Origin: Vicinamibacteria bacterium
GTDB taxonomy: Bacteria; Acidobacteriota; Vicinamibacteria; Marinacidobacterales; Marinacidobacteraceae
Reading direction: 5' to 3'
Length of the DNA: 64,000 bases
Assembly: GCA_965199715.1 (NCBI GenBank)
Contig: OZ241322.1
Span: forward strand, 1,097,226-1,161,225
A model generated the notes under the pieces. The model was given only the letters and a program-made list of their open reading frames with translations. It did no database searches and had not been told where the DNA came from. A program made the position numbers and the translations under genes. Positions 1,114 to 20,365 of the stretch are shown here, piece by piece. How positions within the stretch are numbered: position 1 is the stretch's first letter; each line of letters starts with the position of its first letter.

Positions 1114-1463
1114 GAGACGCCCTCCAGTCGGACGCGCACGACGCCCGACGAATGCAGGTGCGCCGACGACGGCGAGCGCAGTTTGCTGGCCGGTCAGGCT
1201 CGCCCGCAGGTCGTCGGCGCCGATGCGCGGGCGCCCGGGGCGTTCGGCCGGTCGAATCTGGCTCTCGTAATGGGCGGCCTCGCGACCGCCTTCGAATACC
1301 CGGTAGCGAACCTCCGCGTCACCGGTCGCGACGGCGATGATCGCGACGACGACTTCGGGCCTGGCGCGGAGCGTCGGGCATGGGAATCCGCGGGAGGTTA
1401 TCCGAGAGATCGGACATTTTCCGTCACGCTTTCCAAGAAACGGCTGGTAACCTCGCGCCCCGC

Positions 1464-4448
1464 ATGGACAGTCCGGTCAAGGAGCACCACGAGCTACAGC
1501 CGATCCTCCACTCCCCCTACGACGAGCCCGACCGGCACTGGAAGCTGGTCGATCACCAGACGACCGGGGACATCGTCGATCGCCGCCGGCCCGCCGAGGA
1601 GCGCGCCCCGACCCGGCGGCGCCGGCAGAAGGCGCTGCTCGGGGACGACCAGGTGGGCGAGACCGGAACGACGCCCAGCCCCATCGACAACTTGCGCGCG
1701 GAGGTTCGAGAGTGGCGCCGCGCGCAGTGGCCGGGGGTCACCGGAAACACCCGCCGGCTGCTCGAGTACTGGGCGCGTCCGCCGGGCGAAGGGGCGTACC
1801 ACAGCCCCTTCTTCGCCCAGCGCGAGGCCGTCGAGACGGTCGTGTACCTCACCGAGGCAGCCGACTCGAACCATGAGTGCGTGCGGCGCCTGAAGAAGCT
1901 CGGCGACGACTGGAGCGGGGGCCTCACCCGGCTCGCGATCCGCATGGCCACCGGCACCGGCAAGACCACGGTCATGGCGATGCTGATCGCCTGGTACGCG
2001 GTCAACCGCCGCGCGGAGCACCGGGCGGGACGCGGACTCGCGCGCAACGTCGGCATCCTCGTCGTCATCGCCCCCGGCCGGACGATCTCGGGCCAACTTC
2101 GCCGCCGGCTCGACCCGCGCCGCGGCGACAGCCTGTACGACTCGGGCCGCCTGCTGCCGCGGGATCTGCGGCCCCGGCTCAACAACCTCCGGGTGACCGT
2201 CCTGAACTTCGAGAAGCTCCGGCCCCGCCCGGCCGTGGGACTGCGCTCCATCGAGATCGAGGGCAAGGAGGCCATCGGCTGGGCGCGGGCCGAGGAGACG
2301 GCCGAAGTCCCCGAGACCTACGACCAGCTCTGGGACCGGCTGCTCGGCCGCGTGGACCCGCGGCACGGCGACCGGGTCGTGGTCCTGAACGACGAGGCCC
2401 ACCACTGCTGGGAGCGCAAGGCGGGCGCGAAGAAGCGGCGCGACGGCAGCGACCAGGGGGTCTGGATGGAGGCCATCCACGCGCTGGACGACCACCCGCG
2501 GTTCCGCGTCGCGCAGGCCATCGACCTGAGCGCCACGCCGTTCTTCATCGACCCGGCCAACACCCACGTTCCCCCGGACACGAGGATCCCGCGGCGGGAT
2601 CCGCTGGTTCCGTGGATCGTGAGCGAGTTCGCGCTCACCGAGTCCATGGAGGCCGGCCTCGTCACGATCCCCACCCCGCCGCGGAAGACCGACGCCGCGG
2701 AGCCGGACGCGCTCCAGAACCTGTACGAGGACAACGGCGGCCGCAGCCTCGACTCCGCCGCGAACCGGAAGAAGGTGCTGAACGCGGCGCGCCTGCTCTA
2801 CTCCGACTACGAGGCCACTTTCAGGGCGTGGAAGGAGCAGGGCGACCCCTCGATCGGGCGTCCGGTGCTCATCGTCATCGTGAACTCGAAGAAGAACGCG
2901 CGGGCGATGCTCGACATGCTGGGCGGCGCCCGCCGGGGGACCGAGGACGCCTGGGACATGCCGTCGGGGTTCGATCTGCTCTCCAACGTGCCCCACAACG
3001 GCGCGACCGAGCAGGAGTGCCTCGCGCGGCCCGCCCGGACCATCCTCGTGTACAGCAAGGGCCAGGGCGCGGTCGAGAAGAGCGCCGACAGCCGCTTCGA
3101 CCAGGGCGCGATCGGCGTCGAGGAGGTCAAGGACAGTCGCAAGCTGGAGGAGATCCTGCAGACGGTCGCCGAGCCGGGCCGCCCCGGCCAGCACGTGCGC
3201 TGCGTCGTGAGCATCGGCATGCTGACGGAGGGCTGGGACTGCCAGCGGGTCACCCACATCCTCGGCTACCGCAAGTTCGGCAGCCAGTTGCTGTGCGAGC
3301 AGACCACCGGGCGGGCGCTGCGGCGCCACGACTACGAGAACCGGATCGAGGTTCGCCGAAGCGACGACGGGAACGTGACCGAGCGGTTCGAGGCGACGTA
3401 CGCGACGGTGCTGGGCGTGCCGTTCAAGAACTTCGGCCCGCCGCCGGGGCCGACCCCCGGAGTCGTCAAGCCGCGCCGCACGGTCCGCGCGGTCGAGGAG
3501 CGCCGGATCAGCCATCGCATCCGGGTTCCCGACCTGTGCGACTACAAGCTCGTCCACGACACGCCGACGATCAAGCTGGATCCCGACCGGGTGGGCGCGG
3601 CCAAGCTGGCCTCGAGCGGCGACCGGATCGAGATCACCTGGGCGAAGTGCCGCGGGCCGTTCGGCAAGGAGCGCGTGCTCAAGGCGGCTCCCGCCGGACG
3701 GCCGGACGCGGGGGCGTGGAAGCTGGCCGCCGATCTCGCGACCTGGCTCACGAGGCGTCGGAGCGACGACCTGCGCAGCGGCCGCCTCTTCGCGTCCTGC
3801 CTCGTCGCCGTGAGGGCGTGGCTCGCCCACGGGAAGGTCGAATGCGAGCGGCCCGAGGCGCTTCTCCACGACGACGTCCGGCAGGAGGCGCTCCACCAGA
3901 TCCTGCACGCGGTCGTGGACGACCGCGACGCGCCGATCCAGAAGGTCGGAATCGCGACCGACCCCAAGGCGCTGCGCCGCTCGGCGGGCGACTGGGGGCC
4001 GTTCCAGACCACGCTGACCAACGTCGCGGAGGTCGGCAACTCGGAACTCGACCTCGCCGCCTGCCACAACCATTTCGAGACCAGGATCGTGCGAGCGCTC
4101 GACAAGCACCCCAGGGTCGCCGCGGTCGTGCGCAACCACGGCCCCGAGCGGTTCGAGATCCCATACCGCAGCGGCGGACGGTGGGCGCGGTACGTCCCTG
4201 ACTTCATCGTCCGCGCCGAGCCGATCGACGGGGTCACGCCGCACCTGATCGTCGAGGGCAAGGGGCCGCGGGACGGAAAGGCGGCGGACAAGGCGGCGTG
4301 GACGAGGGAGTGGTGGGTTCCCGCCGCGAATCACGCCGCCCGCGACGAGGGCGAGCCGGAGGCCCGATGGGGCTATCTCGAGATCCGATCGCTCGAACGT
4401 CTCGACCAGCAGATCGAGGCGGGCGTCCGGAGGACCGCAGCGTCATGA
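1464..4448 (+). CDS. res: Type III restriction enzyme Res subunit (SF2 helicase + PD-(D/E)xK endonuclease)
   Basis: Walker A MATGTGKTT, DEAH box VLNDEAHHCW, C-terminal nuclease motif VPDFIV...LIVEGKG; ~994 aa from internal ATG 1464 (track ORF starts at 1380 in same frame); stop overlaps mod start (ATGA). Confidence 0.8.
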   Translation: MDSPVKEHHELQPILHSPYDEPDRHWKLVDHQTTGDIVDRRRPAEERAPTRRRRQKALLGDDQVGETGTTPSPIDNLRAEVREWRRAQWPGVTGNTRRLLEYWARPPGEGAYHSPFFAQREAVETVVYLTEAADSNHECVRRLKKLGDDWSGGLTRLAIRMATGTGKTTVMAMLIAWYAVNRRAEHRAGRGLARNVGILVVIAPGRTISGQLRRRLDPRRGDSLYDSGRLLPRDLRPRLNNLRVTVLNFEKLRPRPAVGLRSIEIEGKEAIGWARAEETAEVPETYDQLWDRLLGRVDPRHGDRVVVLNDEAHHCWERKAGAKKRRDGSDQGVWMEAIHALDDHPRFRVAQAIDLSATPFFIDPANTHVPPDTRIPRRDPLVPWIVSEFALTESMEAGLVTIPTPPRKTDAAEPDALQNLYEDNGGRSLDSAANRKKVLNAARLLYSDYEATFRAWKEQGDPSIGRPVLIVIVNSKKNARAMLDMLGGARRGTEDAWDMPSGFDLLSNVPHNGATEQECLARPARTILVYSKGQGAVEKSADSRFDQGAIGVEEVKDSRKLEEILQTVAEPGRPGQHVRCVVSIGMLTEGWDCQRVTHILGYRKFGSQLLCEQTTGRALRRHDYENRIEVRRSDDGNVTERFEATYATVLGVPFKNFGPPPGPTPGVVKPRRTVRAVEERRISHRIRVPDLCDYKLVHDTPTIKLDPDRVGAAKLASSGDRIEITWAKCRGPFGKERVLKAAPAGRPDAGAWKLAADLATWLTRRRSDDLRSGRLFASCLVAVRAWLAHGKVECERPEALLHDDVRQEALHQILHAVVDDRDAPIQKVGIATDPKALRRSAGDWGPFQTTLTNVAEVGNSELDLAACHNHFETRIVRALDKHPRVAAVVRNHGPERFEIPYRSGGRWARYVPDFIVRAEPIDGVTPHLIVEGKGPRDGKAADKAAWTREWWVPAANHAARDEGEPEARWGYLEIRSLERLDQQIEAGVRRTAAS

Positions 4449-5299
4449 GCAAGACCCCGGACGCCTGGGAGCACGGCGGCAAGCGCCCGAACAACCCCAC
4501 CCAGGAAATCGTGGAGACCGCGAAGCCGCGGCGGAGCCGCCAGCACGCGAAGGACGTCCGGGCGCGCAGCGACGCCGAGCCCACGCTGCGCTGGAAGCGC
4601 TCCCGCGAGACGAAGACCGCGGCCGCGCCGATGCTCATGCGGGCCGAGCAGATCGACCCCGAGGCGTGGGTCACGACCCTGAAGCGGGTGCGCGAGCAGG
4701 GCGACCTGTTCGCCCCGTTCAACGCCTTCCGGGAGCCCGGATCGGCGACGCTCGACTGGTACCAGCACGCCGGCAACTGGTCGAACCGGCTCATCCACGC
4801 CGACGCCCGGCGGGCGATGGCGTCGCTGCTGGAGCACGAGCACGCCGCCGGCTCGGTGCAGATGTGCTTCTTCGATCCGCCCTACGGCATGGACTTCGAC
4901 GCAAGGTTCGGCAACGACACGATCCAGCGGCGGGCGTTCGTGGACACCTACGAGAAGGGCGTCCACTCGTATCTCGACGGAATCCGCGAGACCGCGATCC
5001 TCGCCCGGGAGCTGCTGACCGAATCGGGCAGCCTGTTCATGCAGATCGGCGACGTGAACGTCCACCGCTGCGCGATGGTGCTGGACGAGGTGTTCGGGCC
5101 GGAGAACCGGGTGACGACGATCACGATGGCGACGACCGGCGGCGGCAGCAGCACCAAGTCGATCGCGAAGGCGGGCGACTACCTCCTCTGGTACGCGAAG
5201 GACCGCGAGGAAATGGCCTTCCAGGCGCTCTACGAGGAGCAGGACGTCGAGGCGTGGTGCGATGGCCAGACTTTTGCGGGGGGGGGGGGATTTCCCTGA
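4445..5299 (+). CDS. mod: Type III DNA methyltransferase Mod, N-terminal reading frame (motif IV DPPY); terminated by frameshift at G12 tract
   Basis: NRLIHADARRAMASLL / FFDPPYG / ESGSLFMQIGD / MVLDEVFGPENRVTTI / DYLLWYAKD are collinear with EcoP15I-type Mod N-terminus; TGA at 5297 is 8 nt after G12. Confidence 0.8.
   Translation: MSKTPDAWEHGGKRPNNPTQEIVETAKPRRSRQHAKDVRARSDAEPTLRWKRSRETKTAAAPMLMRAEQIDPEAWVTTLKRVREQGDLFAPFNAFREPGSATLDWYQHAGNWSNRLIHADARRAMASLLEHEHAAGSVQMCFFDPPYGMDFDARFGNDTIQRRAFVDTYEKGVHSYLDGIRETAILARELLTESGSLFMQIGDVNVHRCAMVLDEVFGPENRVTTITMATTGGGSSTKSIAKAGDYLLWYAKDREEMAFQALYEEQDVEAWCDGQTFAGGGGFP
5278..5289 (+). repeat. G12 homopolymeric tract inside mod coding sequence (candidate slipped-strand phase-variation site)
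   Basis: cttttgcGGGGGGGGGGGGatttccc read directly; the two mod reading frames switch exactly here. Confidence 0.9.
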
Positions 5300-7022
5300 T
5301 GGAACGCGTCGAGCGCTGAGGCCCGAGGAGCGGCGAGACCCAAAGCGGAATCTCCCGGAAGGCACTGTCCTTTGGGCGATGCGAACGTTGTTGTCGCAGG
5401 GGCCTTCCAGCGGCGAACAGGGCCAACCGTTCACGTGGAACGGAATTCAGTTCGGCCCGCGAGGACTCGAAAAGGACCAGTGGCGTGTGGATCGCGCCGG
5501 CCTCGAGGCCCTCGCCACTGCAGATCGCTTCTGGACAGCGGTGAAGCCAGGGACCCAGACGGCGCGAGCCGCTCAACTCCAGCTACGGATTCTTAGGTCG
5601 GAAATGGCGGGCCGACGCCTCAACAACGTCTGGGCCCGGCAGATCGCCGCGACCGACAAGCGTTATCCCGTCCAGACGGGGGATCTCGCCATCCAGCGCT
5701 GCATGCTGATGACGACCAAGCCGGGCGACCTCGTGCTCGATCCGACCGGTGGCAGCGGCACGACGGCGGTGGTCGCCGAGGAGTGGGGCCGGCGCTGGAT
5801 CGCGATCGACAGTTCCCGGGAGAGCCTCGCCGTCGCCCGGGAGCGCGTGCTCGTGCGCGAGTACCCGGCGCATCTCCTGATCGGAAGCGCCGCCGGGTTC
5901 GCCCGGGAGAACGCGCTGCGCCACGCCGCGGGTCAGGAGCCGCTCGCCGGGCGGCCCCACGGCTCCCGCGATCCCGCCACCGGGATCGTCGTGGGCCGGA
6001 CGCCCTACGTGAGCGCCGCCACGCTCGCCTACCGGGACCGGCCCGACAAGGCCCGAACGCGCGACGTCACGTGGTTCGCGGACCGTCCCGACGGCGGCAA
6101 GAAGGGCGGCCGGATCGCGAGCCGGTTCACCGTCGAGACCGAGCACCTCGAGCAATACCGCAGCCCCGAGGAGCTTCTCAGCCCCCGCGAGCGGCGTCGG
6201 CAGGCGGACTGGAACGAGCGCGTCCTGCGCATGCTCGGCGACAAGGGCGTCGGCTCGAACGAGGGAACCCGCTGGACGCTCGAGGACATCGAGAACGTCG
6301 CCGACCGGCAACCCGAGAGCCGCCCCGGCGCGATCAGCCACCGCTGCCGTCTGATCGACCACGCCACCGGCGCGGCGAAGGACTGCGTCATCGCCATCTG
6401 GCCGCAGGACGCCAAGGTCGGCGTGGGCAACATCCAGCGCAACGTCCGCGAGGCGATCAGCCAGCACGTCGGCGGCGACGACCTCGCGCTGATCGTCGTG
6501 GGCGCGGAGATCGACGGCGGCTCGCACCAGTCGCTCGACGGCGGCCGGTGGCAAATCCCCGTCGCCCGCATCGAGGCGGGGGCCGAGCTGCATCTGAAGG
6601 AGACCCGGCGCAAGGCCGGCGACTCCGAGTCGGCGCTGCTTCTGGTCGCGGAGCCGGACGTGGAGGTCGAGGACGCCGGCGACGGGAAGCGCCGGGTCGC
6701 CGTCAAGGGCTGGCACCAGTTCAACCCGGTGACCGGCGAGTCGGACTTCTACGCCGCCGACCACATCCGCATGTGGCTGCTGGACACCGACTACAACGGG
6801 ACCGAATTCTGCGCCCGCCGCATCCACCTAAGCGCGAAGCTGCGCGCGAAGGAGAACCGGAAGGTGCTCCAGAGGGTCCTCGGGCGCAAGGGCGACCCGG
6901 ACGCGATCCGCGCGGTGTTCGGCTCCCGCAGCGAACCGTTCCCCGCGCCCGAGCAGGGCGAGATCGCCGTGCGCCTGATCGTCGGGAACGGGAGCGTCCT
7001 GAGCTGGCACGGCCCGGCTTAG
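5289..7022 (+). CDS. mod: Type III Mod continuation in +1 frame (AdoMet motif I and ~400-aa C-terminal extension)
   Basis: PGDLVLDPTGGSGTTAVV = motif I (FxGxG) of beta-class N6A/N4C MTase; frame is restored with mod N-part if G tract is 11 or 14 instead of 12. Confidence 0.75.
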   Translation, partial: DFPDGTRRALRPEERRDPKRNLPEGTVLWAMRTLLSQGPSSGEQGQPFTWNGIQFGPRGLEKDQWRVDRAGLEALATADRFWTAVKPGTQTARAAQLQLRILRSEMAGRRLNNVWARQIAATDKRYPVQTGDLAIQRCMLMTTKPGDLVLDPTGGSGTTAVVAEEWGRRWIAIDSSRESLAVARERVLVREYPAHLLIGSAAGFARENALRHAAGQEPLAGRPHGSRDPATGIVVGRTPYVSAATLAYRDRPDKARTRDVTWFADRPDGGKKGGRIASRFTVETEHLEQYRSPEELLSPRERRRQADWNERVLRMLGDKGVGSNEGTRWTLEDIENVADRQPESRPGAISHRCRLIDHATGAAKDCVIAIWPQDAKVGVGNIQRNVREAISQHVGGDDLALIVVGAEIDGGSHQSLDGGRWQIPVARIEAGAELHLKETRRKAGDSESALLLVAEPDVEVEDAGDGKRRVAVKGWHQFNPVTGESDFYAADHIRMWLLDTDYNGTEFCARRIHLSAKLRAKENRKVLQRVLGRKGDPDAIRAVFGSRSEPFPAPEQGEIAVRLIVGNGSVLSWHGPA

Positions 7023-7057
7023 GGCCGGGAGCCTCGCCGCCCTTCTTCACGCCTACA

Positions 7058-7063
7058 GTTTGA
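7058..7063 (+). promoter_or_regulatory. TTGACA -35-like hexamer upstream of three-gene operon (no convincing -10 found)
   Basis: exact TTGACA in intergenic 7023..7084, rare in this GC-rich background. Confidence 0.2.
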
Positions 7064-7084
7064 CAATCCGGGTAACCTTCCGGT

Positions 7085-7831
7085 GTGGCTGCGACGACGC
7101 GAAGCTTCCAAGGCGGCGCAGTGACGGACCCGGCCCGCCCCGTCGACGACAGCGGCTCTGGATTCGAACTCATTGAGCTGTCAGTGGTTTTCGCAACCAC
7201 GTCGAACAACCCGTCAATCATCAATCCGGATTTTCTCGCTCGCGCCGGAATCGTGGGCGAGGACTCGCCACTTAGCGGTGACCCCATCACTACTCCGGTG
7301 TTCTCACTGGTGAAGTACCAAACAGGCCTCGCCGTGCAAGCCGATCCTGAACGGGTCGTGTTGACGGAATCCCCGAATACTGGGAACCGGGTTGGCGCCC
7401 GGTGCGCACGGATGGCGTCGACATACGCGCAGGCGGTCCCGCACGTGGCGTACCGAGGAATCGGCGTCAATCCGAAGTTCTTTTTCCACCTCGTCCCGAC
7501 AGTTCAGGCGGAGATGGCCCGACTGCTGCATGAGCGCGGCGGTTGGCTGGAGTTCAAGGATTGCGAACCCACGGTGCAGCTCAAGGCGGTTTACGCACTC
7601 GACGCTCGCCAGATCACTGTCGATGCGAGCGCCGCCACAAGACGCTTGGGGCAAGGGGCCGAGCAGCGCGGTTTGCTAGTCCAGTGCAACGTGCACCGGG
7701 AGCTCACCGGTGACGCCGAGGAGCGGGCAGACGCCATGGCAACGATTCTTGAGCGGTGGGAGCGCGACATGAAGGACTGCCGAGAAGTGGCGCGGCGCTT
7801 CGCCGGTCGCCTTCAGCAGGAGGCCCAGTGA
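7085..7831 (+). CDS. hypothetical protein A (no recognisable domain), first gene of coupled A-B-C operon; alternative GTG start near 7121
   Basis: 248-aa ORF in lower-GC island; protein-like composition; stop overlaps B start (GTGA). Confidence 0.5.
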   Translation: MAATTRSFQGGAVTDPARPVDDSGSGFELIELSVVFATTSNNPSIINPDFLARAGIVGEDSPLSGDPITTPVFSLVKYQTGLAVQADPERVVLTESPNTGNRVGARCARMASTYAQAVPHVAYRGIGVNPKFFFHLVPTVQAEMARLLHERGGWLEFKDCEPTVQLKAVYALDARQITVDASAATRRLGQGAEQRGLLVQCNVHRELTGDAEERADAMATILERWERDMKDCREVARRFAGRLQQEAQ

Positions 7832-8601
7832 ACGAGACGCCGCTCCAGTCGCCAACGAAACGCCGACTGGTCGCAACCACGGCTCTCCTGACGGGAGATT
7901 TCGGCGAACGCGCTGACGCGACCAGGCCGCCAAGCTTCCCTGAGGAGGCCTTCTTGGCGGCGGAGGTGCGTGTCCCCTACGTCGTGCGTGCCGACCGAGT
8001 CCTGGTGCGGCGGGGTGGGCAGAATGCGACTTCGAGTATGCATGAGAATTTTTGGGCGGGGCTCGTTTCGTCCGGCAGTGCCGTCGGCGAGTTCGATAGC
8101 CCACTGCGCGAGTTCCACACCAACACCCTGAAGCCGGCGTTGAACGTTCTCACGCTTCTGGCACTCGTCAAGGCAACCCAAGCCGAGCACACCCGCGGCA
8201 TGGCCGGAATGCCGGACGCCACCGCCGCTCCGGACGCGAACGCGGACCTGCGAGCCGCCCTGATCGACCTTGATGAAGCGTCGGACGAGGCGCGAGAGGA
8301 AGGGTTCCCAGCGCTTTCCGAGAGGGCTCTAGGCGACGCCAGACGCCTGCTGAAGGACCTCTACCGTATGCACCCTTGCCGACTTGAGGTCTATCCGACG
8401 CCCGATGCCGAGATCGCTCTCGTGGCGCCCGGCGGGGACGATAGATCCGTGATGGTGTTGTGCGCTTCGGATGGCGGCGCTCTATGCACAGTCAACATTG
8501 ACGGGAGACTCCGATACGCACGGTACCCAAGCGCCGCCAGGCTCCCGGACGGCTTTGTCCGTGAAGGCATGCGGGACTTGGTCCGAGCGAGATCGCATTG
8601 A
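7828..8601 (+). CDS. hypothetical protein B (no recognisable domain)
   Basis: GTG start overlapping A stop; 257 aa; stop overlaps C start (TTGA); track ORF 7756..8601 is the same frame extended upstream. Confidence 0.5.
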   Translation: MNETPLQSPTKRRLVATTALLTGDFGERADATRPPSFPEEAFLAAEVRVPYVVRADRVLVRRGGQNATSSMHENFWAGLVSSGSAVGEFDSPLREFHTNTLKPALNVLTLLALVKATQAEHTRGMAGMPDATAAPDANADLRAALIDLDEASDEAREEGFPALSERALGDARRLLKDLYRMHPCRLEVYPTPDAEIALVAPGGDDRSVMVLCASDGGALCTVNIDGRLRYARYPSAARLPDGFVREGMRDLVRARSH

Positions 8602-9029
8602 CGCAGGCGCCGACGGCGATCCATGCCGCTGAGCAGCTTGGACGCGGGGTTTTCTCCGCCAAGGACGCGAAGCGGGCTGCCCGTTCCAAGATTCCACATC
8701 GGGTGTTCCTTACGAAGCCCGGGGTTGTACGCATTTCAGTAGACAGGCTGAATTTGGCTTCCGCGTCGGAAATCGTCACACTGGCCATCGACCGGGCCGA
8801 GAATCGACCGGGACGATTCCATGGCTGGGCCGTCTTGAGCGTGGACAAGGCGATCCGCAAGGGGCGACGCGTCGAGTCCACACCGGCAGAGGGAAATCCG
8901 CATCACGCCGACATCGTGCTTCCCGATCCCGCACGCGAGGATCGGGACGCTCAGATCGCACACGCGAGGGATATGGCTGACGCATCGAATTGGAAGCCGC
9001 GACCTGAAGCGACTTCAAGAGACTCGTGA
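8598..9029 (+). CDS. hypothetical protein C (143 aa, basic; no recognisable domain); TTG start
   Basis: only in-frame start is TTG overlapping B stop; no ATG in first 100 codons. Confidence 0.4.
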   Translation: MTQAPTAIHAAEQLGRGVFSAKDAKRAARSKIPHRVFLTKPGVVRISVDRLNLASASEIVTLAIDRAENRPGRFHGWAVLSVDKAIRKGRRVESTPAEGNPHHADIVLPDPAREDRDAQIAHARDMADASNWKPRPEATSRDS

Positions 9030-9130
9030 TTCACGCTCGCGAGTGATAGCGGCCACGGCTGTCCTCAAGCGGGCACCGGAAAAGCAGGACCGGGTTCTGC
9101 GCCCGTCGCAAGCGACGACCGACCACGGCG

Positions 9131-9370
9131 TCACGGCCCCTCGTCGCGCTTCTCTCGAAAGAACTCCCCGGCGGGCTGTCCGAGCGAGGGCATCGTGGCC
9201 CGGAAGCGCGCCAGATCTTCAACCGCCACGGGTTTCTTGGGGCGAGCTACGGCGGTGAGTCTCGCCACAGTCTTGCCCCGCCGCGTGATCAGAATGTCCT
9301 CACCGGCCTCAACGCGGTTCACGATCTCGCTGAGACGAGCCCTCGCGGCGGAAACGCTGATGGTCGTCAC
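9131..9370 (-). CDS. Phd/YefM-type (VapB-like) antitoxin paralog 3, no intact downstream toxin
   Basis: MTTISVSAARARLSEIVNRVEAGEDILITRRGK matches Phd/YefM N-terminal fold; 4-nt overlap with PIN C-terminal fragment. Confidence 0.7.
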   Translation of the reverse strand: MTTISVSAARARLSEIVNRVEAGEDILITRRGKTVARLTAVARPKKPVAVEDLARFRATMPSLGQPAGEFFREKRDEGP

Positions 9371-9826
9371 GAGAATGCGTGGCCCTGCCAGCTCATGGCG
9401 ATCGGGCCCGCCGTCGTCGGGAGTTCGAGCATTTCGCCGGCGATGAGCATCCCCTTGTCCAAGGTGTAGATGGCGGCGGCATCGTGATTTCGGGCGATCG
9501 CAAGGTGAAGCGCGTCACCCGCTCGCAGCCCGGTCTCGAAGTACCCGAGCCAACTCGCTGCTAACCGGAAATCGTCCTCCGTCGGGGTCAGTCGAACGAA
9601 GGAGTCCCGAACCATGCCTCGTAGCGGGCGCTTACGGCATGGGCCGCCGGGCCGTCAAGCTGGCCCATGCAACCTCGCGCGCAAACGTAGAGGCAACTTC
9701 AACCCCGGTCCAGTCGCTGACCGCAAGTCCCCCCACGCACGGAGCCGCGAAGAACTCAGCTATCGCGAAGCTGTGGGCTTCGTCCAAGAACAGCGGAACC
9801 AGGAAACTCGTGTCGAAGTAGCGCAT
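9367..9826 (-). pseudogene. vapC: vapC (PIN-domain toxin) disrupted by frameshift into two ORFs (9632..9826 N-part, 9367..9615 C-part)
   Basis: N-part MRYFDTSFLVPLFLDE and C-part GDALHLAIA...IYTLDKG contain all four PIN acidic positions but lie in different frames. Confidence 0.6.
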
Positions 9827-9844
9827 TCGACAGCCCGCGGGACC

Positions 9845-10084
9845 TCACCTTCCCTCGTCGCGCATCTCGCGGATGAGCTCCGCCGACGGTCGGCGCAGGC
9901 GTGGCATCGAAGTCCGAAAGCGCTCCAGTTCCTTGAGCGGCAGCGGTTTCTTGGGACGGAGCACGGCGGTGAGCCGGATTGGCTGCTTGCCCCGGCGAGT
10001 GATGACGACATCCTGCGCGTCCGCAAGCTTGTCCAAGACTTCGTCGAGGCGCACCTTCGCCCGATTGAGACTGATCGTGAACAT
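9845..10084 (-). CDS. Phd/YefM-type antitoxin paralog 2 (cognate of the disrupted vapC)
   Basis: MFTISLNRAKVRLDEVLDKLADAQDVVITRRGK; 18 nt upstream of vapC N-part. Confidence 0.7.
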   Translation of the reverse strand: MFTISLNRAKVRLDEVLDKLADAQDVVITRRGKQPIRLTAVLRPKKPLPLKELERFRTSMPRLRRPSAELIREMRDEGR

Positions 10085-10110
10085 CGGAACCTACCCCCAA
10101 GGGCGAGGAG

Positions 10111-10120
10111 TCTAGCGAGG
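10111..10120 (-). promoter_or_regulatory. second copy of operator-like motif upstream of antitoxin paralog 2
   Basis: TCTAGCGAGG 27-36 nt upstream of start at 10084. Confidence 0.3.
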
Positions 10121-10130
10121 ACGGGGGCGC

Positions 10131-10364
10131 TCAGCTCTCCTCGTCGGACACTTCCGGCTCGCGCTCCCCCGACGGCCGGCGTCGCATCGAGGCCCGGAGC
10201 TTGGCCAGTTCCTCGAGCGGCGGCGGCTCCTTGGGACCGAGCACCGCCTTCACGTGCACGGACTCCTTGCCGCGGCGGGTGATGACCACGTCCTCCCCCT
10301 CGGCGAGCTTGTCGAGAATCTCCTCAGGGCGCGACTTCGCCTTCGTGTACGTGATCGTGAACAT
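10131..10364 (-). CDS. Phd/YefM-type antitoxin paralog 1 (directly followed by paralog 2, no toxin between)
   Basis: MFTITYTKAKSRPEEILDKLAEGEDVVITRRGK; GGGAGG RBS; ~75% nt identity to paralog 2. Confidence 0.7.
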   Translation of the reverse strand: MFTITYTKAKSRPEEILDKLAEGEDVVITRRGKESVHVKAVLGPKEPPPLEELAKLRASMRRRPSGEREPEVSDEES

Positions 10365-15691: not shown

Positions 15692-17797
15692 ATGAAGACC
15701 CCGCTTCTCGCCCTTCTCCTCGCCGCCGGGTGCGGCGCCGCCCCCGAACCCATGCCGGAAAACCCCCTTCTCGCCGAGAGCGCCCTGCCCTATCGGCTCC
15801 CCCCCTTCGACCTCATCACGGACGACCACTACCTGCCGGCGTTCGAGGAGGGGATGGCCGAGGAGATCGCGCTCATGGAGCGGATCGCGGCCTCGTCCGA
15901 CGATCCGACGTTCGAGAACACGATCGTCCCGATGGAGACCGGCTCGCCGCTGCTGGCGCGGGTCTCGCGGGTGTTCTTCGGGCTTTCCGGAGCGCACACC
16001 AACGACGCGATGAACGCAATCCGCGAGGAGATCTCGCCGAAGCTGGCCGCCCACGCCGACCGCATCCTCCTGAACCCGGATCTCTTCGCGCGGGTCGAGG
16101 CGATCCACGCGGCGCGGGAGTCCAGCGGGCTCGACGCGGAGCAGATCCGGCTGGTGGAGCGGTACCGCCGCAACTTCATCCGCGCCGGCGCGACGCTGTC
16201 CGAGGAGCAGAAGGAGCGGATGCGCGAGATCAACGCCCGGCTCGCGTCGCTCGGGTCCACGTTCACGCGCAACGTGCTGGACGAGGTGAACGCCGCGGCG
16301 GTCGTGGTCGAGGACGAGTCCGAGCTCGCCGGGCTGGACGAGGGAGCGGTGGCGGCCGCGCGGGAGGCGGCGGCCGCCCGCGGCCTCGACGGCCAATTCG
16401 TGATCCCGCTGCTGAACACGAGCGGCCAGCCGGCGCTCGCGAGCCTGACCGACCGGGCGCTGCGCGAGCGCATCATGCGGGCCTCGCTCGGGCGCGGCGG
16501 CAGCGGCGGCGAACACGACAACACCGAGGTCATCACCGAGATCGCCCGGCTGCGGGCCGAGCGCGCCGCGATGCTCGGCTATCCGCACCATGCGGCGTTC
16601 GTGCTCGAGGAGCAGACCGCGGGCGCGGTGGAGGCGGTGCACGAGCGCCTCTCCGCGCTCACCCCGGTGGCGGTCGAGAACGCCCGGCGCGAGGCCGCCG
16701 AACTGGAGCGCGTGGCCCGGGACGGCGGCGAGGACATCCGGGTCGCCGCGTGGGACTGGCAGATCTACACCGAGAAGCTGCGGGCCGAACTCTTCGACTT
16801 CGACGCCTCGGCGCTGCGCCCGTACTTCGAGCTGAACGGCGTGCTGGAGAAGGGAGTCTTCTTCGCCGCGAACCGGCTCTACGGGATGACGTTCGAGGAG
16901 CGCCCCGAACTTCCGGTCTATCAGGAGGACGTGCGCATCTGGGAGGTCTTCGACCACGACGGCTCGGCGCTCGGGCTGTTCATCGGCGACTTCTACGCCC
17001 GCCCGTCGAAGCGCGGCGGCGCGTGGATGAACGCCTACGTGCCGCAGTCGGGCCTGCTCGGGACGAAACCGGTGGTCGGGAACCACCTGAACGTCCCCGA
17101 GCCGCCCGAGGGCGAGCCGACGCTGCTCACGTTCGACGAGGTCATCACCCTGTTCCACGAGTTCGGGCACGCGATCCACGGGCTGTTCTCGGACGTGCGC
17201 TACCCGACGTTCGCCGGAACTTCGGTCCCCAGGGACTTCGTGGAGTTCCCCTCGCAGGTGAACGAGATGTGGGCGACCTGGCCCGAGGTGCTCCAGAACT
17301 ACGCGGTCCACCACGAGACCGGCGAGCCCATCCCCGCCGACCTGCTGGAGCGGGTGCTGTCCAGCCAGACGTTCAACCAGGGGTTCGCGACGACCGAGTA
17401 TCTGGCGGCGACGCTGCTGGACCTCGCGTGGCACGAACTCCAAGCCGACGAGGTTCCCGAGGCCGGGCGGGCGATCGCCTTCGAGGAGGCCGCGCTCGAA
17501 TCGGCGGGGGTCGCGTTCGCCCCGGTTCCGCCCCGCTACCGGAGCACGTACTTCTCCCACATCTGGGGGAGCGGCTACTCGGCGGGCTACTACTCGTACA
17601 TCTGGAGCGAAGTGCTCGACGCCGACACGGTGGAGTGGTTCCGCGAGAACGGCGGCCTGCTGCGCGAGAACGGCGACCACTTCCGGGCGACGCTGCTGTC
17701 GCGCGGCGGCTCGGTCGAGGCGATGCGGCTCTTCCGCGACTTCCGGGGCCGGGACGCCGAGATCGGCCCGCTGCTGAAGCGCCGCGGGCTGGACTGA
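15692..17797 (+). CDS. dcp: M3-family peptidyl-dipeptidase (Dcp/oligopeptidase A-like), lipoprotein signal
   Basis: HEFGHAIH zinc motif, full-length M3 architecture, N-terminal MKTPLLALLLAAGCG. Confidence 0.8.
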   Translation: MKTPLLALLLAAGCGAAPEPMPENPLLAESALPYRLPPFDLITDDHYLPAFEEGMAEEIALMERIAASSDDPTFENTIVPMETGSPLLARVSRVFFGLSGAHTNDAMNAIREEISPKLAAHADRILLNPDLFARVEAIHAARESSGLDAEQIRLVERYRRNFIRAGATLSEEQKERMREINARLASLGSTFTRNVLDEVNAAAVVVEDESELAGLDEGAVAAAREAAAARGLDGQFVIPLLNTSGQPALASLTDRALRERIMRASLGRGGSGGEHDNTEVITEIARLRAERAAMLGYPHHAAFVLEEQTAGAVEAVHERLSALTPVAVENARREAAELERVARDGGEDIRVAAWDWQIYTEKLRAELFDFDASALRPYFELNGVLEKGVFFAANRLYGMTFEERPELPVYQEDVRIWEVFDHDGSALGLFIGDFYARPSKRGGAWMNAYVPQSGLLGTKPVVGNHLNVPEPPEGEPTLLTFDEVITLFHEFGHAIHGLFSDVRYPTFAGTSVPRDFVEFPSQVNEMWATWPEVLQNYAVHHETGEPIPADLLERVLSSQTFNQGFATTEYLAATLLDLAWHELQADEVPEAGRAIAFEEAALESAGVAFAPVPPRYRSTYFSHIWGSGYSAGYYSYIWSEVLDADTVEWFRENGGLLRENGDHFRATLLSRGGSVEAMRLFRDFRGRDAEIGPLLKRRGLD

Positions 17798-17808
17798 GGG
17801 TTCGGGCC

Positions 17809-18858
17809 ATGGATCGCGCCCATGCGGACCGCATCGGCGCCCTCATGGCCCGTCTTCCCTTCGACCTCGATCCGGACATGGAAGCGACCGGCCGTCCGCC
17901 GACGATGGCCGGGTCGCAGTTCCTGACGAATCGAGAACAGGGCGACTGGGCGGAGGAGATCCTCCACGACGCGACCAACGGCCATTCGCCGGACTACGCG
18001 GCGGTCCGGTATGGGCGGGCGGAGTCGCTTCCGGCCGACGATCCCGGTTTCCCCAAGCACTTCGCGGACTACGTCGCCGAACTGAACGCCGTCGGCAAGA
18101 AACCCGACCTGCTCGTCGTTTCCCGGCGAGCCGGCGGCGCGACCGAACCCGCGGAGCGCGCGGTCGCCGGACTCGAAGTCCGCTCCAGCAGCTTTCTCGC
18201 GGACAAGTACGCCCGCTTCATGCGCAGCCGCAACACGGCCGCCGAAGCCGAGTGCCTTCGCCTTCAAGCCATCGTGCTCGGCGATCCCTACGGACCGCTT
18301 CTCCGCGAGAAAGCGCCGGAGACCCACGACCTGCTCTCGCGCGCCACGCGAGGGACGTTTCGGGAGATCACCTTCCGCGCCCGCAACCGGTCCTCGTCGG
18401 CGGCCCTGCGCGAGCTCAGCGAGCACCTCCGGGCGCTGCGGACCGAGATCCGGACCCTACACAAGCGGGACTACCTGAGCATCACGCCGAAGCTGGAGGA
18501 TCTCGTCCTGGTGAACCGTTGGATCCAGCGGTTCGGCGTGCCGCACTACTACGTGCAAGCGTTCTTCGACAGGGCGTTCGTGATCTCGTTCGAAAGCATC
18601 CTGCGCATCGTCGCCCGCCCTGAATGGGAGGGCGAGAAGTTCTCCGTCGAGCGCGACGTCAAGAACCAGCAGAAGACGACGCTCAAGATCGACGTCGGCG
18701 TCGGGCGGGAACTCGTGGGACGCATCGACTTCCCGAGTCACGAGTCGGCGTTGAGAGAGCTCGAGCGCGGACGGCTCCTCTTCTACGTCAGATTCCGCGG
18801 CGGGAGGGGCTATCTCGACGCGGACGCCTTCGAGCAGGAGATCGTCGGTGGGCGTTGA
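17809..18858 (+). CDS. putative Type II restriction endonuclease (unrecognised family) paired with downstream MTase
   Basis: 349-aa ORF whose stop overlaps the MTase start by 11 nt; possible PD-x(n)-ExR core KPDLLVV...GLEVRS; no other family match from sequence. Confidence 0.4.
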   Translation: MDRAHADRIGALMARLPFDLDPDMEATGRPPTMAGSQFLTNREQGDWAEEILHDATNGHSPDYAAVRYGRAESLPADDPGFPKHFADYVAELNAVGKKPDLLVVSRRAGGATEPAERAVAGLEVRSSSFLADKYARFMRSRNTAAEAECLRLQAIVLGDPYGPLLREKAPETHDLLSRATRGTFREITFRARNRSSSAALRELSEHLRALRTEIRTLHKRDYLSITPKLEDLVLVNRWIQRFGVPHYYVQAFFDRAFVISFESILRIVARPEWEGEKFSVERDVKNQQKTTLKIDVGVGRELVGRIDFPSHESALRELERGRLLFYVRFRGGRGYLDADAFEQEIVGGR

Positions 18859-20365
18859 CGCCTCCCGCTACGCGGCGATCGTCGGGGAGGAGCACCGGCG
18901 CAGGTTCGGCCAGTACTTCACTCCGCCCGCCGTCGCCCGGTTCATGGTGGACTGGGCGCTCGGCGGCGGGGCGAAGTCGATCCACGATCCGGGCTTCGGC
19001 CTCGGCGCGTTCCTCGACGCGGCGGACGGGCGGGGGGCGCGCTTTTCGGCGAGCGAGGTGGATCGGCGGGCCGTGCGCTTCTTCCAGGAGTCCTCGCACC
19101 GATGGAACGGCGAGCTTCGGGAGGAGGACTACCTGCTCGTCTGGGGCCGCCGATTCGACGCGATCGTCTGCAATCCGCCGTACCTGCGATTCCAGCGCTT
19201 TCGCGACCGGCACGCCATCCTGGCCGGCTTCCGCAAGAATCTGGGGTTTCGGCTATCCGGATACACGAACTCGGCCTCGGCGTTCCTCGTCAAGTCGCTG
19301 TCGGAACTGACCCCGGGAGGCAGGCTCGCCTACGTGACGCCGCTGGAGTTCCTGAACACCGGCTACGGGATGGGGGTCAAGGAACGGCTCCTCGCGAGCG
19401 GCGCTTCCCTGAGCCTGATCCAGCTCGACTGCGAGAAGGACGTGTTCCCGGACGTCATCACGTCCGTCGGGATCGTGCTGCTGGACACGGGCGCCGCGGC
19501 CGACGCGGTGCGGTTCCATTCGGTGCGATCGCTCGAGGAGCTCGAGGAAACGCTCGGCGGGCCGCCCATCGCTTCCGTCCCGACCGCTGATCTCCGCCCG
19601 GAAGAGCGGTGGATTCCTCACTTCACGGCGCGGTCGATTCGGCCGGACCGCACTCGCGTGGGGTCCATCCTCCAATACGGCCGTTTCACCCGAGGCATCG
19701 CGACCGGCGCCAACGACTTCTTCGTCATGCGACCTTCCCGCGCCCGCGCGCTGTCGCTCGAAGCGGAGGAGACCGCCCGGTGCATCACCAAGAGTCGGCA
19801 AGTCCGCAGCGCGGTCTTCACGAAGCGCGATCTCGCCGCGCTCGCCGACAAGGACGATCCGGTCCTCTTCTTCCGGGCGGGGCCGCGCCCGAGTCCGCCG
19901 GCGGCGACCTACATCGCCCACGGAGAGGAGCGGGGCCTGCATCGCCGCTACCTCCTGCGGCAGCGCCGTCCGTGGTTCAAGAGCGAGACCCGGAATCCGG
20001 CGCCGCTGCTGCTCGGCGTCTTCTCGCGGGGCGACTACAAGGTGGTTCTCAACCGGAGCGGGGCGCTCAACCTGACGTGCTTCCACGGCTTCGTCCCGCG
20101 GCTGCTCGGGCGGAACTACGTGGATCGGTTGTTCCTGTACCTCATCTCCGAGACCGGGCGCGACCTCATGGCCGACCTCGCCCGGCGTTACGGCGATTCG
20201 CTCGTCAAGTACGAGCCGCACGACCTGAACGACGCGCCCGTTCCCGTGCCGGAGGTGCTCGACCAGCTCGGTGCGGACGAAGTGGCCGACGCCGTGGTGC
20301 GCGTCCGCGCCGGAGCGGGCCTGCCCTCGGCCGTCGAGAACCGCTTCCGGGCGCTCGTGGCCTGA
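18848..20365 (+). CDS. gamma-class N6-adenine DNA methyltransferase (TaqI/Eco57I-like)
   Basis: motif X QYFTPPAVARFMVD, motif I HDPGFGLGAFL, motif IV VCNPPYL in gamma order. Confidence 0.8.
   Translation: MGVDASRYAAIVGEEHRRRFGQYFTPPAVARFMVDWALGGGAKSIHDPGFGLGAFLDAADGRGARFSASEVDRRAVRFFQESSHRWNGELREEDYLLVWGRRFDAIVCNPPYLRFQRFRDRHAILAGFRKNLGFRLSGYTNSASAFLVKSLSELTPGGRLAYVTPLEFLNTGYGMGVKERLLASGASLSLIQLDCEKDVFPDVITSVGIVLLDTGAAADAVRFHSVRSLEELEETLGGPPIASVPTADLRPEERWIPHFTARSIRPDRTRVGSILQYGRFTRGIATGANDFFVMRPSRARALSLEAEETARCITKSRQVRSAVFTKRDLAALADKDDPVLFFRAGPRPSPPAATYIAHGEERGLHRRYLLRQRRPWFKSETRNPAPLLLGVFSRGDYKVVLNRSGALNLTCFHGFVPRLLGRNYVDRLFLYLISETGRDLMADLARRYGDSLVKYEPHDLNDAPVPVPEVLDQLGADEVADAVVRVRAGAGLPSAVENRFRALVA

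Follow-up and report, generated by a model that had tools for sequence, protein, structure and literature searches.

Phase-variable Type III DNA methyltransferases are well studied in pathogens. A survey of the Type III mod genes in REBASE treated mononucleotide G tracts of at least 9 bases as potentially phase-variable, and the G[n] tracts that it listed include those of Helicobacter pylori modH, modJ and modL and of Campylobacter upsaliensis modU (PMC5909438). Phase-variable mod examples in environmental species were also flagged there in 2018, their role being left unexplained (PMC5909438). We analysed a 64-kb stretch of genomic DNA (hereafter the window) that contains a mod gene interrupted at a run of 12 G. 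This G12 run satisfies the threshold of at least 9 G and so places the gene in the known class of phase-variable Type III mod genes. The initial annotation of the window had named the tract a candidate phase-variable switch. That reading fits the survey threshold and is strengthened by relatives of the gene, in which both ON and OFF alleles occur at the same codon.

The tract lies in the second gene of what is likely, as judged from its sequence, a translationally coupled, two-gene Type III-like restriction-modification operon in which res precedes mod (Table 1). The stop codon of res overlaps the start codon of mod by 4 nt (ATGA at 4445-4448), and the res-then-mod pairing with the 4-nt overlap recurs on the contigs of relatives. 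The window res has 0 stops and 0 frameshifts. Its product matches the NCBIfam model NF046055 ('BPTD_3080 family restriction endonuclease') collinearly over profile positions 3-967 of 970 with 572 bits (E = 2.5e-171), a score under the 800-bit cut-off of the model, and the homologues of Res carry the source name 'type III restriction enzyme'. We found no match to Res among PDB sequences. Type III Res subunits combine the SF2 helicase motifs with a PD-(D/E)xK endonuclease domain, and no endonuclease domain was detected in the window Res, PF19778 being present only in some homologues of 31% identity. Given these two results, Type III membership is likely, short of fully shown. A literature search on the BPTD_3080 family found no paper.

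Table 1. Features of the restriction-modification operon in the window.
Feature	Position	Strand	Description
res	1380..4448	+	1022-aa SF2-helicase-type restriction subunit, intact; Pfam PF04851 ResIII
mod 5' segment	4445..5299	+	start codon, motif IV DPPY (residues 144-147), poly-Gly codons; premature TGA
G12 homopolymer, candidate contingency (slippage) tract	5278..5289	+	
mod 3' segment, +1 frame	5290..7022	+	DFPDG…EERRDPKRN block, motif I, ~390-aa C-terminal region

The surroundings of the operon were searched as well. No RNA genes were found in the window with Rfam. On the 3' side of mod, the stretch 7000-10300 has a GC content of 60-66%, as compared to ~71% for the window. Four ORFs in this stretch (7085-7831, 7756-8601, 8598-9029 and 9614-10282) had no Pfam match, and for the first, second and fourth of these no match was found in PADLOC or NCBIfam. 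The low-GC stretch and the restriction operon may be parts of one acquired island. A second restriction-modification system is located ~9 kb downstream (15730-20365). It comprises an ORF (15730-18858) with a C-terminal AccI restriction endonuclease domain (PF09545, E = 5e-87, residues 720-1034), followed by an Eco57I/N6_Mtase-type methylase (18848-20365), and a 701-aa ORF (15692-17797) overlaps the long N-terminal part of the AccI-domain ORF.

Counted in the letters of the window, exactly 12 G occupy positions 5278-5289 (ACTTTTGC GGGGGGGGGGGG ATTTCCCTGA). The upstream frame of mod, from the ATG at 4445, reads CDGQTFAGGGGFP and then meets a TGA stop at 5297-5299, while the +1 frame past the tract reads GGGDFPDGTRRAL and is open until 7022, with LDPTGGSGTT of motif I included. 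The run, the early end of the upstream frame and the continuation through motif I were each found as the initial annotation had described them. Its proposed rescue is also borne out: with one G removed (G11) or two G added (G14) the two frames fuse into a Mod of 858 aa. A homologue search found 7,610 matches; many of these are ~860 aa long and align with 99-100% of the fused protein, at a best identity of 77%. Searches with tblastn place the frame change at residue ~280 and revealed 0 lesions in mod besides the tract. Both segments are open and conserved, and the 3' segment matches itself at 100% and homologues of full length at 77% identity.

The G12 run is the sole homopolymer of at least 8 nt within the 64-kb window (70.6% GC), for which a first-order model predicts ~0.04 runs of at least 12. 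From the Gly codon usage of the window mod itself, four GGG codons in a row have a probability of ~8e-4. The earlier statement that such a tract is unusual in a high-GC genome stands for the window, but does not extend to the family, where homologues in loci of 48-71% GC also carry the tract.

An ATG at 5262 lies in the +1 frame 16 nt 5' of the tract, with a GAGG at 5249-5252, 9 nt before it. A start at this ATG could in principle give a separate 586-aa C-terminal fragment in the OFF state. A two-piece methylase made in this way is thought unlikely, as the start is not conserved in relatives. Gene callers in other genomes had to start the 3' part at Met residue 312.

The fused Mod matches Pfam PF01555 (N6_N4_Mtase) in one stretch across the junction (residues 138-464, profile positions 1-219 of 221). 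Its top PADLOC model is MTase_III PDLC03632 (313 bits), and a profile of the Mod family weakly matched PDB structures of EcoP15I Mod and of H. pylori Mod. DPPY (144-147) and LDPTGGSGTT (431-440) are invariant in the Mod alignment A1, and motif IV is thus N-terminal to motif I, the arrangement that, with a recognition region between the two motifs, marks beta-class Type III methyltransferases. The ~390-aa C-terminal region (residues ~470-858; window 5850-7022) is conserved throughout the family, and searches of Pfam and of PDB sequences gave no match for it. Modelling of the fused Mod with AlphaFold2 from 18 aligned sequences gave a structure of low quality (mean pLDDT 51, pTM 0.27).

The junction itself has the form TFA-(G)n-DFPDG in alignment A1, with n = 2-7 among in-frame homologues, and the poly-Gly is directly followed by a conserved block, DFPDGTRRAL..EERRDPKRN. 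The tract had initially been assigned to the start of the target-recognition region. The alignment corrects this location: the tract is not in a variable specificity segment but codes for a poly-Gly linker that is itself conserved, with the conserved block behind it. On this evidence the tract is predicted to encode a flexible linker that joins the catalytic N-terminal part of Mod (DPPY) to the remaining protein. The range of poly-Gly lengths among in-frame homologues indicates that the site tolerates 3-nt steps, and this tolerance makes the linker a safe site for a slippery repeat.

To place the tract in its family, the DNA of 30 related loci was compared; a metagenome scan gave three usable loci. 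We found an uninterrupted G9-G20 run at the same codon position in 11 lineages that share 51-78% amino-acid identity (Table 2). Four alleles are in frame and eight, with the window included, are out of frame. In every out-of-frame allele the frame change occurs at residue 278-281 by tblastn. The window, L019, L021, L023 and L030 have one G too many, and L008, L022 and L024 have one G too few. Some of the OFF alleles were found via truncated proteins starting at residue 312, and the 8:4 ratio of OFF to ON is biased because part of the OFF sample came from this search; unbiased scans gave 4 ON and 1 OFF, the window not being counted. The tract-carrying MAG records bear names such as Alphaproteobacteria, Paracoccaceae and Ca. 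Poriferihabitaceae, and some of these MAGs may be sponge-associated. Our search for papers linking sponge or environmental MAGs to a poly-G tract in mod found none.

Table 2. Alleles of the poly-G tract in mod.
Locus	Source	Tract	Reading frame
L004	Paracoccaceae MAG	G12	in frame
L012	Alphaproteobacteria MAG	G12	in frame
L016	LXNI01003274	G11	in frame
L006	Ca. Poriferihabitaceae MAG	G20	in frame
window		G12	out of frame
L008	Alphaproteobacteria MAG	G12	out of frame
L019	Logan SRR23238410	G9	out of frame
L021	Logan SRR26713616	G15	out of frame
L022	ERZ19489113	G13	out of frame
L023	JGI 3300007115	G11	out of frame
L024	ERZ23495066	G14	out of frame
L030	ERZ25070844	G15	out of frame

In a neighbour-joining tree the tract-bearing genes are interleaved with homologues that code the same glycines by mixed codons, such as GGC GGT GGT GGC GGC in L002 and (GGA)4 in L001 and L028. 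The sequenced relatives in the window's own clade are without a G homopolymer, L001 with its (GGA)4 being one of them. Outside the tract, GGG makes up 14-43% of the Gly codons in tract-bearing genes, and the probability of a run of tract length from codon usage alone is 1e-2 to 3e-5 per lineage (8e-2 for the G9 of L019). The GGG codon fractions rule out the tract as a by-product of G-rich codon usage. Since codon usage leaves the run unexplained, it appears to be maintained or repeatedly regenerated and not to be a compositional accident. A stronger proposal, to which we give even chances, is that the poly-G in mod is a switch of ancient origin, kept by selection at one codon position while the protein diverged to ~50% identity, and shared by several phyla of uncultivated bacteria.

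A different repeat was observed at the same site. An identical GCA(GGA)4GAC occurs in L001 (~1116) and in L028/L029 (~3877), two distant lineages whose identities to the window are 77% and 53%. This repeat would alter the poly-Gly length without a frame shift.

Tract length also differs between near-identical strains. The alignment of L030 with L006 covers 7,405 bp at 99.66% identity and contains 20 mismatches and a single gap, a 5-nt difference in the tract (G15 OFF as compared to G20 ON). The protein of L006 (P0054) belongs to a cluster built at at least 90% identity. Two full-length members of this cluster have the junctions AGGGGGGD and FGGGGGGGD, the second of which, going by the protein sequence, would be a ~G22 ON allele. 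The cluster further holds two halves of a split protein encoded on the same contig (287 aa, with …AGGGGGLS before the stop, plus 590 aa; their DNA is L030) and a 285-aa fragment that ends …TFGGGGFP at a stop, and these protein ends suggest that a ~G11 OFF allele is included. ON and OFF tract-length alleles are thus represented in this sister lineage by L006, L030 and P0121 to P0124; the closest relative of the window Mod has 77% identity. A comparison with related genomes, which the initial annotation had put forward as a check on the tract, has in this way yielded G9-G20 runs in 11 diverged lineages and a change of length between near-identical strains. On this reading, split 'N6_N4_Mtase' gene pairs in such MAGs would be one switchable gene instead of two, and not necessarily pseudogenes.

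With a single lesion in mod next to an intact res, an old pseudogene is a poorer fit than either a switch that can be reversed or an error in the consensus. Of the latter two, we lean towards a reversible slipped-strand poly-G switch in mod, captured here at an OFF length. The poly-G tract, within codons for the flexible poly-Gly linker, would be hypermutable, and slipped-strand mispairing in replication would alter the number of G. Lengths of 11, 14, 17 and so on would yield the full-length 858-aa methyltransferase (ON). At the remaining lengths, the G12 of the assembly included, Mod would end after 284 residues (OFF), and G12 would be the real majority state. Type III Res presumably relies on Mod for DNA recognition, so that the OFF state would silence methylation and restriction together. 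The outcome would be a stochastic, reversible on/off of defence within the population, a presumed benefit, and perhaps methylation-dependent expression of a set of genes would be switched too, as in a phasevarion.

A homopolymer consensus error is an unlikely but serious alternative. In that case the true length is G11 (or G14) and an intact mod is ON, and hypermutability of the tract in nature would be compatible with it. A one-base change gives a perfect full-length mod with 0 other lesions. The source, with a contig of 2.35 Mb, is probably a long-contig MAG comparable to the OZ/CBD long-read MAGs in which homologues occur, and in assemblies of this type long homopolymers are prone to miscounts. 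There is also a background of assembly frameshifts: low-coverage contigs of relatives have scattered frameshifts (L026, labelled '3x'), and split genes are also present in clusters that have no tract. However, OFF alleles recur in assemblies that include JGI 3300007115, an LXNI WGS record, Logan SRR runs, a 'METAG-scaffold' and hifiasm- or metaMDBG-style contigs, and their record names suggest different pipelines, dates and platforms. The difference between G15 and G20 exceeds a typical ±1 miscount, and with one of the two contigs labelled 21x it is hard to explain in that way. Other conserved genes in the window, among them EF-G, ParE/GyrB and a sulfatase, are intact. The best matches to ParE/GyrB are MAG proteins of 79-80% identity, and its matches with a taxon name, at ~56-57%, belong to several phyla.

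The frequency of out-of-frame alleles in the mod family could also be read as a sign of expression bypass, in which RNA polymerase slippage or ribosomal frameshifting would give a share of in-frame product at every tract length and keep the gene constitutively expressed at a lower level. Long homopolymers are sites of RNA polymerase slippage, mainly in A/T runs, and to our knowledge slippage on G runs is poorly documented. The OFF alleles deviate by +1 and by -1 nt, as expected of random slippage and not of a conserved programmed frameshift, and on this ground we reject programmed ribosomal frameshifting as the main explanation. We consider bypass as a whole very improbable.

Parts of the system have been lost or interrupted in several relatives. 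The res gene is degraded in L002 and L026. In L003, res is frameshifted (3905) at a C9 run (residues ~322-331) and mod is without a G tract; this res may be repeat-controlled or mis-assembled. In L006, where mod is ON, res is interrupted by an insertion of ~0.98 kb (3208-4188) relative to L030. The flanks of this insertion overlap by 11 bp, a possible target duplication, and the insert contains an ORF start MKDYLNL, a C12 at 3314 and then a 219-aa signal-peptide-like ORF in a different frame, so that it may be a second homopolymer-controlled gene. In L013, mod breaks off precisely where the tract would be, with G6 left (6840-6846) and unrelated sequence after it, and the remainder of mod was not found within 6 kb. 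An IS with an rve-type transposase (1575-2956) interrupts mod near residue 300 in L020, a 2-kb insertion (3993-6001) lies at residue ~350 of mod in L007, and mod is split near residue 300-312 in L018, which is without a G tract. Several long G/C runs cluster around the operon of one genome, L004, with a C15 upstream of res (1677) and a C12 at the 3' end of mod (8622) that produces the tail …CPPPPIRLSS.

Such decay, with res degraded, frameshifted or interrupted and mod interrupted or truncated, would suit a plain pseudogene in the window, that is, a decaying system with a fixed loss-of-function frameshift that falls by chance in the G run, but this is the least credible of the explanations, as the window genes are otherwise pristine over 1022 + 858 codons with no stops and no other shifts, and the lesion coincides with the single position that is hypermutable family-wide.

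If the poly-G is indeed such an ancient, maintained switch, stochastic on/off of restriction or epigenetic switching would be a normal way of life for non-pathogenic bacteria with large, high-GC genomes, and no longer a speciality of small host-adapted pathogens. The family offers a clean comparative case, with one repeat at one linker position in at least 11 diverged lineages and with both ON and OFF alleles. If reads confirm heterogeneity, long-read metagenomes, in which methylation is recorded as well, could tie tract length to methylation in uncultivated populations, and this link would test defence trade-offs against gene regulation.

Among described systems, EcoP15I (Mod2Res1; PDB 4ZCF) shares with the window operon a Mod with DPPY before motif I and a Res with a ResIII SF2 helicase domain. 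The relationship is very distant, with E ~1e-8 to EcoP15I Mod in the profile search and the window Res without a PDB match. In classical Type III systems mod is upstream of res, whereas the window has the reversed order. Type III cleavage is ATP-dependent, relies on Mod for recognition and takes two unmethylated sites in inverse orientation. Res is a full-length collinear match to NF046055, but at 572 bits as compared to the curated 800 it represents a sister group and not an equivalog.

The closest parallels are the phase-variable G[n] mod genes. As in H. pylori modH, modJ and modL and C. upsaliensis modU, the window mod encodes a beta-class N6-adenine-type methyltransferase (PF01555) with a G run of at least 9 in the ORF, and a Res partner adjoins mod. 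In this family, as in those genes, tract length would set the ON or OFF state, and both states are found among related strains. Unlike the pathogen genes, those described here belong to uncultivated hosts, mostly of high-GC environmental or MAG lineages. The tract is mid-gene, in a conserved poly-Gly linker, and its position is kept at 51-60% protein identity. In addition, res precedes mod, and Mod has an extra conserved C-terminal region of ~390 aa. The locus thus goes modestly beyond the known picture, in a repeat position kept across deep divergence, in uncultivated high-GC hosts, in placement of the repeat within a linker and in the res-mod order.
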